Assembly: GCA_951406725.2 (NCBI GenBank)
Contig: OX597817.1
Location: 110,484,001-110,548,000, forward strand
Direction of reading: 5' to 3'
DNA: 64,000 nt
Origin: Octopus vulgaris
Lineage: Eukaryota
This document shows positions 13,461-64,000 of this stretch, one piece after another (the first letter of the stretch is position 1; each line of letters begins with the position of its first letter). The notes below the pieces were generated by a model, which made no database searches, had not been told where the DNA came from, and saw only the letters and a list, made by a program, of their open reading frames with translations. A program made the translations under genes and the position numbers.

Positions 13461-13907
13461 ATATATACATATATAATACTGTACATTAATATACACTTCC
13501 ATTAATATACCCACTGATATATAATACAATACACTTCAATTAATGTACCCACTCTATTAACAGATATACAAGTGCACTTTTTCCTGACTTATGAACTCTT
13601 AGATGGCTCTCTCTCTCTATCTATCTATCTATCTATCTATCTATATATATATATAATAGAAATATTAAAATTACTAAGTCTCTCTAAAAGAGATTACTAA
13701 GTCTCTCTAAAGGAGATTACGGCAGCATTACTGGAAATTAATAGTTATCGCCATACTAATATGGCAGTCTTATAAATATAAGACTAAAGCTGTCGCTGAT
13801 TAGCTCCATGAGGCCATCGCCTTAAGCTAGCTATTTGACACACAAACTGCGTCCATTATAAACCTTCGAACAAGGGAGGTCAGCCGCTTCATCCTGCCAG
13901 TCAGACA

Positions 13908-13948
13908 GCTACAGACGTTTCAGGGTTGTTGCCCCTTATCAATGCAGC
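13908..13948 (-). ncRNA. Minimal type I hammerhead ribozyme (U3-A8 core variant)
   Basis: Minus strand GCUGCA UUGAUAA GGGG caacaa CCCU GAA ACGU C UGUAGC: stem I, core, stem II, palindromic ACGU stem III, GUC cleavage triplet. Confidence 0.8.
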
Positions 13949-14325
13949 GTAGTCAGACTTGCAGGTGTCGCTACTGATCATCCCAGTTTGAAGGCTTTAT
14001 TTAGCTAGTTTCAGTGGAATACATCCACTTGTTTTCAATAATACAAATATTAAAATTACTAAGTCTCTCTAAAGGAGATTACGGCAGTGTTACTGGAAAT
14101 TAATAGTTATCGCCATACTAATTTATATACTTATATTTATAAGACTGCCATATTAGTATGGCGATAACTATTAATTTCCAGTAACGCTGCCGTAATCTCC
14201 TTTAGAGAGACTTAGTAATTTTAATATTTGTATTATTGAAAACAAATGGATGTATTCCACTGAAACTAGGTAAATAAAGCCTTCGAACTGGGATGATCAG
14301 TAGCGACACCTGCAAGTCTGGCTAC

Positions 14326-14366
14326 GCTGCATTGATAAGGGGCAACAACCCTAAAACGTCTGTAGC
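14326..14366 (+). ncRNA. Minimal type I hammerhead ribozyme, second copy (G12A, probably inactive)
   Basis: gctgca ttgataa gggg caacaa ccct aaaacgtc tgtagc; GAAA mutated to AAAA. Confidence 0.7.
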
Positions 14367-14532
14367 TATCTGACTGGCAGGATGAAGTGGCTGACCTCCC
14401 TTGTTCGAAGGTTTATAATGGACGCAGTTTGTGTATCAAATAGCTAGCTTAAGGCGATGGCCTCATGAAGCTAATCAGTGACAGCTTTAGTCTTATATTT
14501 ATAAGACTGCCATATTAGTATGGCGATAACTA

Positions 14533-14582
<50 letters not shown>

Positions 14583-27252: not shown

Positions 27253-29605
27253 CAGTGGTTCCCAACCATTTTTCAGCCCAGGAACCATTTTTTACTTGAA
27301 AAACTTTCAAGGGACCACTTCTACTTTTACTTTATGCTGTTCTATTTTCACACTAAGATACTTAATGAAAAGACAAAATAGTCTATTTACACTTTAAATT
27401 ATATTTTAGCAAACAAAAGATAAAATTTTAAATGTGTTTTAGTAAACAAATATAAACACAAGATATCAAAATCATTTTTCATAAAGTCGTTCATTTTTAG
27501 TTCATTCAGCTAATGACTAGCTTGATATTGGTGTTTCTGACACAAAATATGATAATCAATTTTAATGAGCTCATTTAGTCTTAGTCTGATAGTTCCTCTG
27601 CTGTTGACATCTAATTTATTTCTTTTTCTACTTAAATTATCTACAACAGCTGAAAATGCAGATTCCACCATCCATGTGGTAGAGAAAGAAATGATGCTTG
27701 CTTCTACATGTCGAAAAATATTTGGGTATGAGTCCTTTATCGATATGTAGGCAAAGACACCTTCTTTTGCAACTCTTCTTCTCAGTTTCATATTCTCTTT
27801 CAAATCTAACAACATTTCAGCCAACTCAAAATTTTCATCTCCTGGCTCATAATTTTCTAGGTCTATCTTTAATAAATCATTGTATCTTCCCTCAAAGTCT
27901 ACATGAAGACCTTCAGGAAGGGCAATGCATTCTGATGTAGGAACTGTGGTGTTAAAATTTTGAAATGATGCCAAAATTTACTTTTTAAACTGTTTTTTTT
28001 CCAAAATTTTAATTTCCCCATATACCCTTTTATCTTCTGAGAACAGGTGACCAAATCTGATTTTCTACCTTGCAGCTCTAAGTTAAGCAGATTCACTGTT
28101 TAAAAAATATCACTCAAGTAGAATATTTTTGATTTAAACTCAGAACGTCTTTCCAAAACAGCTTGCTTCTTGAAGTTGTAGTGAGTCATCTGACTCTTGA
28201 ACACGAGAAAGTTGATTAATGGTTCCCATAAATTCACTAGTCTTTCAAGGCTCAGGCCTATTAACAACCATCTTACTTCTGTGTGAAGCAATAGGGTTTT
28301 TAAATCTTCATCTTCACAGAATTGCATAAAAAAATCTATTATTCCCTGAGTTTGATTTGACAAAGTTAATTGTATAACTGGCAGTGTTGAGCACTTCTTC
28401 AATGTGTTCTCCAATATTCTTAGCAACCTGTCTGTGGATAATGCAATGTATATAAAAAATGTGAGGAGCAACTGATTTCATTCTAGAAACAAAGCCTTTC
28501 ACTTTTCCAGTCATGGCTGCAGCTCCATTTGAAGAAATGTTGATTAAATTAGTCGATGAAATATTTTTATCATTAAAATACTTCAATTAAAATACTTGAA
28601 TATGTCTTCTCCATTAGTAGTTTCAGACAAACTTTTAATGAATAACATTTCTTACCTTATATCATCTTCATGGGTGAATCTGACATAGACCAGAAGGATA
28701 GCTTGGTTATGAATTCTGCTATCATCAATCTTGATAGAAAAATTTGTCTTTTGGAGAACTTCCACAATCTTCTCCCCAACAAAATTAGATATTTCATCCT
28801 ATCTTCTTGTAATTGTGTTATTTGAAAGTGGAATTGTACTCAGAGTAGATGCAGCACCTTTTCCCAGAATCTCATTTGCACAAGCTATCATAGCAGGCTT
28901 GACAAGTTTCTCACCATAAATCTGAGGTGCTGCAACCTTGGCAATAATTTCAGAGACAAAATAACTTAGTTTGAATGTCTTTACTTTTTCAGTCGGGTAG
29001 TTTGATTGGCTGTATTTTTTTTTTTATTCTCAAAATATTCCCTACCTTTACCAACAGATGATGGATGCTTCAATTTCTGGTGCTGTTCTAGCTTAACTTC
29101 CTTCAAGGAATGATTTGTCATGATAGCATCACATTCAAGACACATAAGTTTTGAGTCTACAGATACAAAACCAAACATGCTAAAATCTTCTTTGTAGTTC
29201 CTCAGTTTTACCTTTTTAGCAGTTGGTTCAGACATTATTACAATTGATCTTAAAAAAAATAAAAATAATAAATACTTTATTTCTATAAATTAAAAGTATC
29301 AAATTTATTATTAAACAATATTGTGTAGGGATCTATTAATAATGTCAAATTTATTATGAAACTGTTGTGATTGTAAAATGTAAATTATGTAATTCTTGTT
29401 TGTAATATATTATTGATTATATATTATACATTATTGATTCTTATGGAATAATTATTGAATTTTGTTTTCTTATTATTATTCTGTCTTCATATAAATTATT
29501 ATTAACTAACAGTGTCTTCATTATCAAGCAATTTTATGTAGATCTAAAATGGCTTCTATTTGTTTATGGCTACGAATTCTCTGGGGACCTCGTTGGGAAT
29601 CACTG
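27253..29605 (-). mobile_element. Full-length hAT (Buster/Charlie-type) DNA transposon, 2353 bp
   Basis: TIR cagtggttcccaac / gttgggaatcactg; perfect 8-bp TSD TGTTAAAC at 27245-27252 and 29606-29613; internal transposase. Confidence 0.95.
27510..29235 (-). pseudogene. Frameshifted Buster-type hAT transposase (ZBED5/FAM200-like)
   Basis: BED-finger-like CLEC..H..H, then SSNGAAAMTG, HCIIHRQ, LLLHTEVRWL, LNLELQG and dimerisation-domain FSTTWMVESAFSA, spread over several frames. Confidence 0.9.
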
Positions 29606-50771: not shown

Positions 50772-52290
50772 GTCCTGTGGTGGCAGGCTACGGATAACAG
50801 GGACAGGCCTTGGTGGAACTGGAAGTCTCTAGTGCCTATCCTATACATAGGTGGTGAGCATGTGATGATCGCTCAATCAGAGACCTTGTTGCAACTCCTT
50901 TGGGTGGTAGCTATGTTCACGACTGGGCTGGCCTATTTAGGATTCCTGCTGCCCACCTTGAATGAGGAAGGCCTTGAATGAGGTGGGCTAAACATCAGAT
51001 GTCGCAACTCTACTTGACTGGAAAGCTGCATTCAGCGGGTCACCCATTCTGCAGCCGAAACACTATAATGAACTTTGCTACTTGGAATGTTTGGACACTA
51101 CTAGATCACAAGGACACAAATCGACCTGTCAGAAGAACAGCCCTCATCACACACGAACTGAGCTGTTTCGGTGTGAACTTTGCAGCTCTGAGTGAAACCA
51201 GGTTCTCAGGGGAAGGATCACTTGAAGAACAAGGTTCTGGATATACGATCTTCTGGAAAGGAAAGGAGCCTGGTCAACCTCATATGCATGGTGTGGGTTT
51301 TGCAATCAAGACAAAACTCATATAATCCTTCAGTCTGACTCCGTCTTGCATCATAGAGAGAATCATGTCCATCCGAATTCCTCTCTCAACATCTTTCATC
51401 ACTATCTTTTCCATCTATGCTCCAACACTGGATGCTGAGGACAACATAAAGGAAGAGTTCTACAATCAACTTGACCAACAACTCACAGCTGTCCCCAGTT
51501 CAGACAAAATTCTCCTACTGGGTGACTTCAACGCAAGGGTTGGCAGAGACCATCATCTATGGGAGAAGGTTGTCAGGAAAGATGGAGTCAGGAACTCCAA
51601 TGCAAATGGACATCTTCTTGGACTGTATTCTGAACACAAACTTGCTATCACAAACACCTTCTTAAGGCAGTGGAACTGCTTCAAGACTATATGGCAACAT
51701 CCCAGATCCAAACATTGGCACCTCCTAGAATATGCCATCACAAGACAATGTGATCTCAAAGATGTTCTGATCATTTGTTCTATGCTATCTGCTGATGACT
51801 GTTGGACCGACCACCATCTGGTTGTTACGCAGATAAGATGGACTCTGAAGAAGAAGACATTCCCCCCAAGATCAAATCCACCTCCCCGGAGGAAGTATGA
51901 CACCACTGCCCTCCGAGACCTCCAGAAAGTCTGTCTTTTTCAAGAGTCTGTCAAAAAGAAGTTGAATGAAAACCCCCCATGTGACAGCTCTGAGTAGACT
52001 ACGCTCAAAAACATCATCACCAAATCTGCGAGAGAGAACATGTTTCCAAAAGCGATCTTATGCAGACTGGTTCAACTCAAATAGTCTTGAAATCTCTACC
52101 CTGATTGATGCCAAGCGATCGGCACTCATTGAACATCTGAACAACCCCTCATGTTCCACGAAACTTGCCAGATTCAGGGAAGCCAAGTCACTCTGCCAAA
52201 GAAGGATTCACGAGATCGAGAATCAATGGTAGCAAGCCAAAGATGTCCAACTCCAATCCTTTGCTGACAGCCATGACATGAGGAACTTTT
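50772..52290 (+). mobile_element. RTE (BovB-like) LINE: 5' UTR plus APE endonuclease, lacking RT and 3' end
   Basis: MNFATWNVWTLLD..RPVRRTALI..EL..AALSETR, YAPT, LLGDFNARVG, WQHPRSKHWHLLEY, CWTDHHLV; stops and frameshifts. GC-richer leader from 50772. Confidence 0.9.
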
Positions 52291-52669: not shown

Positions 52670-53140
52670 ATCATCAACATCGTTTAACGTCCGTTTTCCG
52701 TGCTAGCACCGGTTGGATGGTTCGACCGGAGTCTGGGAAGCCAGGGGCTGCACCAGGCTCCAGTCTGATCTGGCAGTGTTTCTACAGCTGGATGCCCTTC
52801 CTAATGCCAACCACTCCGCGAGTGTAGTGGGTGCTTTTTACGTGCCACCGGGACAGGTGCCAGGGGAGTCTGGCATCGGCCACGATCGGTTGGTGCTTTT
52901 AACGTGCCACTGGCACGGAAGCCAGTCAAGGTAGTGCTGGCATCGGCCACGTTTGGATGGTGCTTTTTATGTGCCACCGGCACAGGTATCACAACTACTA
53001 TTTCCATTGATATTTATTTCGATGTTCATGTACTTGACTCAATAGGTCTCCTCAAGCACAGCGGGATGTTCTGGAATCCAAGGTACTTTGAATGGGCAGG
53101 GGCTATGCGGAACTGGTGCAGGAAGCAGCCCGGGTCTTTG
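52670..53140 (-). mobile_element. Retroposon family D, young CpG-rich copy
   Basis: Reverse complement of 59470-59857; internal gtgcttttt-acgtgccaccgg subrepeats. Confidence 0.85.
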
Positions 53141-62211: not shown

Positions 62212-62274
62212 ATATATATATGTACATATATATATATAGATATATATATGTACGTATAAATACATATATATATA

Positions 62275-62324
<50 letters not shown>

Positions 62325-62373: not shown

Positions 62374-62556
62374 ATCATCATCATCATTTAATGTCCTTTT
62401 TCCATGCTAGCATGGGTTGGACGATTTGACTGAGGTCTGGCGAACCAGACTCCAATCTGATCTGGCAGAGTTTCTACAGCTGGATGCCTGTTAGGTTCTA
62501 AGTTCACAGCTGAGGCGTGAGCTAGGATCCATGTTAGGCTTCTGTGTTAGCATGTA

Positions 62557-62940
62557 TATATTAGAGGAAATGGACAACAAAAACCAAAGCAGGACAAGTA
62601 TCTCAAGTCATAATAATTGAGGGTAAGGTGAATTTGAAGTCTTACAGCTGTTTCGAGGATATCTCAAGTGGTAAGGCTAGGATGTCTGTACACTTGGTAT
62701 TCTATCATCAGAGACAAGGTGTGTATGTATGAAAGTTCCATACAGGGAAATTCGCAGTTTATAAGGAATAAAATAGAAGAATAAAGAGTAAAAGCTGATA
62801 GAAGAATACAGATAGGAGAATAAAGTTCACAGTTCATTTTTCCAGAGAGTATGGAGGTTGGTCTGTACTTTCATGGAGGTATAAGCCCTTAAGTATAATC
62901 CCAGGTAAATCCAGGCAGTATTTTGAATGATGCATTCATG
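62557..62940 (-). mobile_element. Penelope-like/retrozyme-type unit (family 3)
   Basis: Contains the hammerhead at 62639-62715. Left end atatatt..gaaatggaca resembles that of the 33437 element. Inner boundary approximate. Confidence 0.6.
62639..62715 (-). ncRNA. Type I hammerhead ribozyme with long stem II
   Basis: Minus strand GUCU CUGAUGA uagaauac-CAAGUG...CACUUG-agauauccuc GAA ACAGCUGU A AGAC. Canonical core, palindromic stem III, GUA triplet; base of stem II partly decayed. Confidence 0.8.
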
Positions 62941-62945
62941 TTGAA

Positions 62946-63382
62946 GTAGGTATTTCCAATACTCTAGTCACTAAATGTGACAATTATAGTTTTCCTTTTT
63001 GGTTAAACATTTCAAACTGCTGTCTATTTTAATTTTATGTATACACATTAGCGATTTGCTAAATCATCCATAAATGTCTATGATGGAAACATATATACAG
63101 GCAGAGAATTAAGTCTGAAAATCTACTGAAGTAGAGCCAATCCTTATTGATGAGGCAACAGAAATTGCAGAAACTGAATTCAGTATAAGGAATTTTCGAA
63201 TGGCATTTATGGATGATTATAGTCTCCGTCTGTGTATATATATATATACAATTATGTGCTTTGACAACAGGATTAGAACATTTTAGCTCTCTTATCTCTA
63301 GCAATGTAGGTGTTTCTAACACTTTAGTCACATTTAGTGACAATTATAATTTTCCTCTTTGGTAAAACATTGCAAACTACTA

Positions 63383-63392
<10 letters not shown>
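62946..63392 (+). mobile_element. Penelope-like/retrozyme-type unit (family 4), 360-bp period, about 1.2 copies
   Basis: Direct repeat gtaggt..tagtcac..gtgacaattat..ttttcc..caaact at 62946 and 63306; internal hammerhead; ends in (TA)n. Confidence 0.75.
63141..63191 (+). ncRNA. Type I hammerhead ribozyme (C3U-mutated copy)
   Basis: UCCUUA UUGAUGA gGCAA cagaaa UUGCa GAA ACUGAAUUCAGU A UAAGGA: 6-bp stem I, 12-nt palindromic stem III, GUA triplet. Confidence 0.8.
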
Positions 63393-63422
<30 letters not shown>

Positions 63423-63424
<2 letters not shown>

Positions 63425-64000
63425 TACAATGGGTAAATTGTTACCATTTTATATTTTTAATTTTGCCATACACATTGTTTATTTTTGATTTTGTTGACTA
63501 CAGAATATAGTAGGGTCAGTTTGGACACCAGCTGTGAGAAAAATAGCACCATGACACAATTTGCTCTGCCATAAACTTGGAAAGAACATGCTGTATTGCT
63601 TGGCATTCACGCCAAAAGCTCCAATACGAACAGATGATGAACACGCAGAACAACGATTGACTTGCCTTGTCCCCAAAACATGTACTGAGAGTGATAAAAA
63701 TCAAACATCCAGTCAATATCATGGTGTTTGGAATGATCACTAGTGATAGGGACATTATACATCCATTCATCTTCCCACACAGCCTCACACTCAACATGGA
63801 GGCCTGCATCAAGTGCCTGGTGGAGGTAGTGCTGCCTGAGTCAAGAGGGTGGCTGCTGGAAGACCCTAAGTCTGACAACAGGACTCTGCACCATGTCACA
63901 CAAGCAGGAGAACCCAGTCATGGCTGTCAGATAATTTCTGTGACTACATCACTCCTAACATCTGGCCACCTAACCCCCAGACTGCAATCCCTTTGATTAT
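63423..64000 (+). mobile_element. Tc1/mariner DD37D (maT) transposon remnant, runs off window
   Basis: KHPVNIMVFGMITSD..PFIF and QQDSAPCHTS..WPPN.PDCNPFDY. 37 residues separate the last two catalytic Asp after repairing a 1-nt deletion. N-terminal region largely deleted. Confidence 0.85.

Follow-up and report, generated by a model that had tools for sequence, protein, structure and literature searches.

The window, i.e. the whole 64,000-nucleotide stretch of Octopus vulgaris DNA analysed here, consists of AT-rich animal DNA, rich in SINE-type repeats and TA microsatellites. Near its right end two sequence arms, indicated as M and P, each containing a hammerhead, meet head-to-head. The features of the locus are reported below, together with a comparison locus at 13.7 kb.

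13659..14537, no strand: homologous head-to-head pair of a third hammerhead family, with a 362-bp monomer, U3-A8 core and minimal stem III
62227..62320, no strand: TA microsatellite runs, (TA)6 at 62227-62238 and (TA)20 at 62281-62320, left part of a TA-rich tract
62375..62488, minus (to judge from its tail): SINE-type fragment, 5'-truncated, of a very abundant repeat, with the (CAT)n tail at left
62489..62947, minus: arm M, the pseudo-LTR-like 3' end of a hammerhead family present in many copies, truncated at its 5' side, 459 bp, GC 37.5%
62639..62715, minus: hammerhead of arm M (type I, decayed), in which stem II is long and stem III palindromic; cleavage is predicted after 62643
62946..62947, no strand: 5'-to-5' junction of M and P, 2-nt overlap, no TA filler
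62946..63392, plus: arm P, 1.24 units of a retrozyme-like monomer of 360 bp (full unit 62946-63305, remainder 63306-63392), GC 31%
63141..63191, plus: hammerhead of arm P (type I, decayed), in which stem III is palindromic; cleavage is predicted after 63185
63390..63421, no strand: (TA)16, adjoining arm P at its 3' end, putative target

Paralogues were collected by comparing positions 62400-63394, at 80% likeness, with the genomic contigs of four sequencing runs (X1, X2, X10 and X14), each with a different organism label; for minus-strand records, coordinates were assumed to be on the record's own strand. Both arms are high-copy, with many covering contigs in all four runs; the summed depth, which is not a copy number, has its maximum in X1, near 52,700, compared with 40-57 for each contig listed. 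The listed paralogue pieces are 32, 22 within M, nine within P and one across the junction; beyond the listed rows there are 41,884 pieces, 294 joints and 2,048 loose ends. No second copy of either family was found elsewhere in the window.

The two hammerheads had been proposed in an earlier note on this DNA, at 62639-62715 on the minus and 63141-63191 on the plus strand, and both a pattern scan of our own (minus core 62711-62643, plus core 63147-63185) and the paralogue family letters agree with these assignments. Together with the two hammerheads of the 13.7-kb palindrome, they are the four top-scoring of seven matches in the window (scores 13, 11, 10 and 9). Since shuffled windows sometimes reach such scores (0.25 matches per window at score 11, 0.125 at score 9), the score by itself is insufficient proof of the minus hammerhead. 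Neither was found by Rfam, where no hammerhead family matched at the gathering score or at E values up to 10, and the minimum-energy folds of both locus copies do not take the hammerhead fold. Both copies are damaged: the plus one carries a U at C3 (position 63147), where the family has a C, and a G.A closure of stem II, while the minus one has four mismatches in stem II. The paralogue majority letters, among 40 of 133 difference rows, lift the pairs of the minus stem II from 6/10 to 9/10, with an A-U/G-C double change among them, and in the plus core they bring back C3. Both are therefore read as degenerate members of families whose type I hammerheads are well formed and have a palindromic stem III; at the family level the letters give a type I core having stems I-III and a NUH cut site. 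The predicted cut sites are 542 bp apart, on opposite strands. Pattern scans of viral and prokaryote contigs gave no match for either hammerhead, and the sole metagenome match (L001) was discarded as due to chance, only a 16-nt motif being aligned. A perfect 15-bp inverted repeat (63062-63076 / 63204-63218) encloses the P hammerhead; it is still perfect though at 63076 and 63209 the letters of this copy are not those of the family majority, which suggests compensatory subfamily variants or intra-hairpin correction.

The length of 360 bp, attributed to the plus-strand unit in the earlier note, was recovered both from the self-match of 62946-63048 with 63306-63408 and from goes-back joints of about 358-360 in P paralogues, which indicate that P is tandemly organised elsewhere. 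The two repeats at the locus differ at 9/80 sites (95% interval 5-20%), besides a 4-nt indel and the inversion of a 5-nt loop. The latter involves 62967-62981 and 63327-63341, which have a common 5-bp hairpin stem; the loop is inverted in the first P copy, a micro-inversion typical of hairpin template switching. Opposite-strand joints were also observed within the P family, at 62983/63289 and 63290/63325. The longest plus-strand frame of P has no Pfam match, and the monomer folds somewhat better than shuffles (z -2.45). Being a short, low-GC, non-coding monomer with a type I hammerhead and a genomic tandem, P fits the structural definition of a non-LTR retrozyme, and it is likely a non-autonomous 360-bp retrozyme-like repeat. 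Animal non-LTR retrozymes, in the accessible parts of their descriptions (Cervera and de la Pena 2020, PMC7229834; Li, Clavereau, Pollet 2026, 10.64898/2026.07.22.740005), resemble arm P in the type I hammerhead, the monomer length (350-390 bp in mussel, PMC7229834), the GC content of 31% and the tandem organisation seen in paralogues. The P copy differs from them in having 1.24 units and one damaged ribozyme, so that it is not 'active' by the two-unit rule, and arm M differs in having no monomer repeat within its 459 bp.

For the minus-strand unit, the left limit of 62557 given in the earlier note could not be maintained, as M-family sequence continues to about 62489, according to family letters at 62518, 62543 and 62553 and to one paralogue piece spanning 62488-62643. 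Another M piece ends at 62554, so that the former boundary may be a common family end. Among the pieces listed, 10 of the 22 from M end at 62924-62947, and one plus-strand M-paralogue contig continues for 540 unaligned letters past its arm-M end. An opposite-strand joint of the M family, 62824/62925, is found in X1 and X2. No internal terminal repeat or monomer repeat was detected within the 459 bp, though a monomer could exceed the piece present, and folding is no better than that of shuffles (z -0.12). About 40 codons precede the putative UTR. For the 5' 110 nt of M, which may resemble the C-terminus of a PLE endonuclease, no support was obtained, with 0 Pfam matches, none by word search and Atlas scores <0.8; three phmmer matches to the 5' frame are internally repetitive proteins, whose scores result from summed weak matches. 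No RT/GIY-YIG ORF was detected in either arm. The hammerhead-bearing 3' end, the 5' truncation and the inverted partners of arm M nevertheless appear as in EN+ Penelope-like elements (PLEs), and a longer PLE-type element is the likely source of M, as its truncated tail.

The 3' ends of both arms had been described as pointing out into TA-rich flanks, which holds on the right, where arm P joins (TA)16, and not on the left, where arm M abuts the SINE-type fragment at 62488. This fragment lies directly against arm M, with zero spacer, and the TA tract is located to its left rather than at the edge of M; both outer flanks of the pair bear microsatellites, the original left end having been replaced by the SINE-type fragment. 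The latter is broken at 62488: it is 74-84% like four other copies in the window, three of which continue beyond that point, and, among the loose ends listed, other copies continue differently past it in 4/4 runs. Its end and an internal repeat of M are alike over about 10 nt, in a comparison that did not include M's own sequence left of 62489, suggesting that the two may have been joined by microhomology. Beside (TA)16, region 63424-64000 contains frameshifted reading frames, presumably resembling a Tc1/mariner transposase; Pfam and protein searches provided no confirmation of a DNA transposon in this flank. Farther away, a decayed endonuclease frame of a non-LTR retrotransposon is found at 50978-52232 (Pfam Exo_endo_phos_2, E 2e-05, under the curated cut-off), and broken frames on the minus strand at 27510-29289 look like those of a hAT-type transposase.

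The two arms had been reported to meet 5'-to-5' at about 62940. The head-to-head join stands, while its position is shifted to 62946-62947, where M paralogues reach 62947 and P homology begins at 62946. One contig from X2, covering 62854-63007, crosses the junction, accounting for one of the eight listed pieces of this run and for none of the 24 of X1, X10 and X14. Its depth, 3.2, is like that of other single contigs of X2. Against the window it shows 7 letter differences and 13 gaps, with no indel listed at the junction itself, and is therefore not the window's own haplotype; the neighbouring X2 contig, at 63105-63331, differs by 0 letters and 1 gap. The bridging contig may correspond to an allele or to a second locus. 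Since an independent contig bridges the junction, the join is not an assembly artefact, and bridging by one listed piece of 32 speaks against amplification of M-P as a composite. The junction therefore exists and is rare. None of the 15 joints listed links M to P. A dip in depth at the junction (864 in X1) was not used as evidence by itself, a bin inside P being equally low (898).

M and P have no detectable homology to each other, as stated earlier: their best local alignment score, 28.5, was reached by 77 of 200 shuffles. No palindrome is present across the junction. The locus had been compared in the earlier note to the palindrome at 13.7 kb, and the geometry does match, M and P being, unlike the arms of that palindrome, from unrelated families. 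In the 13.7-kb pair both ends are at TA runs and a 7-nt AT filler is found at the centre; its arms end at different points past the cut (177 and about 255 nt), with a short duplication at the left end, and contain no sites distinguishing one template from two. P and the 13.7-kb unit have monomers of 360 and 362 bp, and their alignment is marginal (3/200 shuffles reach the score, in one of six comparisons).

Two observations that the earlier note had named as contrary to a joint origin of the arms were not made: neither a larger composite, given the single bridging piece at single-copy depth, nor a large difference in age was seen. Paralogue mismatch amounts to 14.3% in M, from 22 pieces, and to 15.9% in P, from 8 pieces (two near-identical ones from X2 being excluded), with p = 0.02 in a rank test on pieces which are censored at 80% likeness and not independent. 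The SINE-type fragment is about as diverged (84% to its best match in the window). These values point to no large age gap between the arms, with little power. The 13.7-kb pair is younger, its arms differing at 11/386 sites.

Most of this architecture is known. In the parts available of the respective sources, PLEs typically have inverted, 5'-truncated partners and insert at (TA)n targets (PMC8557442), self-priming is proposed for PLE inversion (PMC3846280), and the origin of the inverted ends is stated to be unresolved (PMC8557442, PMC3846280). Self-priming cannot join unrelated families and, with no palindrome across the junction, cannot make the M-P pair. Purified PAc, a PLE protein, cuts and extends both strands, is a predicted dimer, and starts reverse transcription at a site non-homologous to the target, as far as the available text reports (PMC11167929). 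Similarly partial sources describe, for PLEs, type I hammerheads with palindromic stem III and dual motifs 100-700 bp apart on opposite strands (PMC4209133), while U3-A8 cores are known natural variants (PMC3088659, PMC4209133). From the accessible sections, 24 of 57 Xenopus retrozyme families resemble pLTRs of PLE partners, and co-occurrence and sequence likeness are the sole grounds for assigning a mobilising enzyme to animal retrozymes (10.64898/2026.07.22.740005). In O. vulgaris, 31 recently active PLE families are reported, again from a source seen in part (PMC13282606), so that many partners would be available both to separate insertions and to a joint one.

The M-P pair is like the EN+ PLE insertion units, as described in the accessible text of Craig et al. 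2021 (PMC8557442) and Arkhipova et al. 2013 (PMC3846280), in its 5'-truncated, head-to-head ends, in the hammerhead near the 3' end, in the TA-microsatellite target and in the partial tandem at the 3' end of P. It is unlike them in that the partner comes from an unrelated family, no palindrome crosses the junction and no RT/GIY-YIG ORF was detected. With respect to the PLE hammerheads of Cervera and de la Pena 2014 (PMC4209133, available portions), the type I fold, the palindromic stem III, the spacing of opposite-strand motifs and the U3-A8 variant of the 13.7-kb family are shared; stem II of M differs, being of about 10 bp and closed in the family by U-A rather than G-C, and the dual motifs are not said, in those portions, to belong to different families. 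A likeness also exists with L1 twin priming and two-insertion bridges (Zumalave et al., 10.1101/2024.08.27.596794, in part), where two DNA ends prime cDNAs which meet at an orientation switch and two distinct RNAs are possible; there, unlike here, twin priming uses one RNA, and the two-RNA cases are same-family tumour events yielding rearrangements. No description of heterologous head-to-head PLE pairs was found in the literature searched, most subscription papers and supplements being outside the search.

The join was probably produced by successive insertion into the TA tract, or by a later deletion, an explanation which we hold with somewhat better than even confidence. M and P would have been reverse-transcribed into the same microsatellite in separate Penelope-type insertions, M first, leaving TA on both sides. 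P would later have primed in the right-hand TA remnant, pointing outward, and its 5'-truncated cDNA would have been attached to the 5' end of M via the 2-nt overlap, the few TA units in between being lost either during the insertion of P or through a small deletion afterwards. On the other side of M, the SINE fragment would have joined in the same manner, and both ribozymes would have decayed after insertion. PLEs are indeed described, in the available parts of PMC8557442 and PMC11167929, as favouring AT-rich and (TA)n targets; moreover, three of the eight TA-run sites in the window adjoin the end of a hammerhead unit, so that occupancy is high and double hits are expected. Because a second flush junction, with the unrelated SINE at 62488, is present in the same tract, successive insertion explains the data equally well as a single event. 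M and P are unrelated, while a likeness between retrozymes and the pLTRs of their PLE partners is reported (10.64898/2026.07.22.740005, in part), and each family forms its own homologous inversions elsewhere, none of the 15 listed joints connecting the two. On the other hand, head-to-head is just one of four equally likely geometries for a second hit, and no TA remnant is left at the junction; both features are expected under one-event priming, which they favour, given adjacency, by a rough likelihood ratio of ~10. No clear difference in age separates the arms, the pieces listed include no empty allele and no orthologue carrying just one arm, and other M-P junctions may exist among the 294 joints and 41,884 pieces beyond those listed.

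The explanation put forward in the earlier note, a single integration using two RNAs, is possible, though it is given clearly less than even weight. Both target strands would be nicked, with one 3' end priming on M RNA and the other on P RNA, either by one PLE dimer using P in trans or by two different RNPs; the 5'-truncated cDNAs would be joined by the 2-nt overlap, and the SINE fragment would have arrived later, removing the original TA junction of M. The geometry is that of the known inverted 5'-truncated PLE partner (PMC8557442, in part) and of the 13.7-kb pair, and the flush junction and the similar paralogue mismatch of both arms are in line with it. Extension of both strands by PAc makes one-event priming on two RNAs biochemically plausible, and the cDNAs of two L1 insertions that occur synchronously can become joined at inversion-like junctions, according to the accessible text of 10.1101/2024.08.27.596794. 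This is, however, a single case; the 3' end of M is not at TA, the target assumed by the model, the families lack a detectable common sequence that one RT could recognise, and the SINE-type fragment, mechanistically unrelated, makes a junction just as flush at this site. The agreement in age is weak, given censoring at 80% likeness, non-independence and the similar divergence of the SINE. In a toy model assuming an occupancy of 0.05-0.5, a flush rate of 0.05-0.2 and an inverted-partner rate of 0.4, the odds are even when about 0.2-6% of inverted partners are heterologous, and the two-RNA event would be favoured only above that share. Nothing in the present data positively supports one event, and since two different RNPs at one break give the same product, a shared RT/endonuclease acting in trans would not follow even from it. 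All other routes jointly are given little chance. A template jump or break repair, linking in one event the cDNAs of SINE, M and P, or else genomic pieces that were copied, into a chain, is improbable: both internal junctions are flush with short overlaps, and templated, chimeric inserts are known for L1 (10.1101/2024.08.27.596794) and microhomology joins for PLEs (PMC3846280), both sources seen in part, but three unrelated templates would be required simultaneously, and a jump by one cDNA keeps orientation, so that passing from M to P requires an antisense template. It is very improbable that M and P are parts of a larger composite amplified as a unit, or an assembly error. The bridging contig differs from the window more than its neighbour does, and could be a second locus; its existence speaks against an assembly error, while its single-copy depth, the isolated bridging, the frequent stop of listed M pieces near the junction and the one continuing into unaligned sequence are against a composite.

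The M-P locus is thus most simply explained, with confidence moderately above even, as an ordinary accumulation of mobile elements stacked in a TA tract, a microsatellite hotspot. A head-to-head, 5'-truncated pair in such a tract is known PLE architecture, and just the heterologous partner is unusual. If the two-RNA event were true, the junction would be the fossil of one integration involving a longer PLE-type transcript and a 360-nt retrozyme, and the inverted ends of PLEs would arise by two-RNA priming, not by fold-back self-priming. One locus cannot perform this test, but it suggests a genome-wide census of heterologous pairs. As these are impossible by self-priming, a genome-wide excess would separate the models and name helper-parasite partners; in the case of a two-RNA event, the census would reveal which autonomous element drives which retrozyme.
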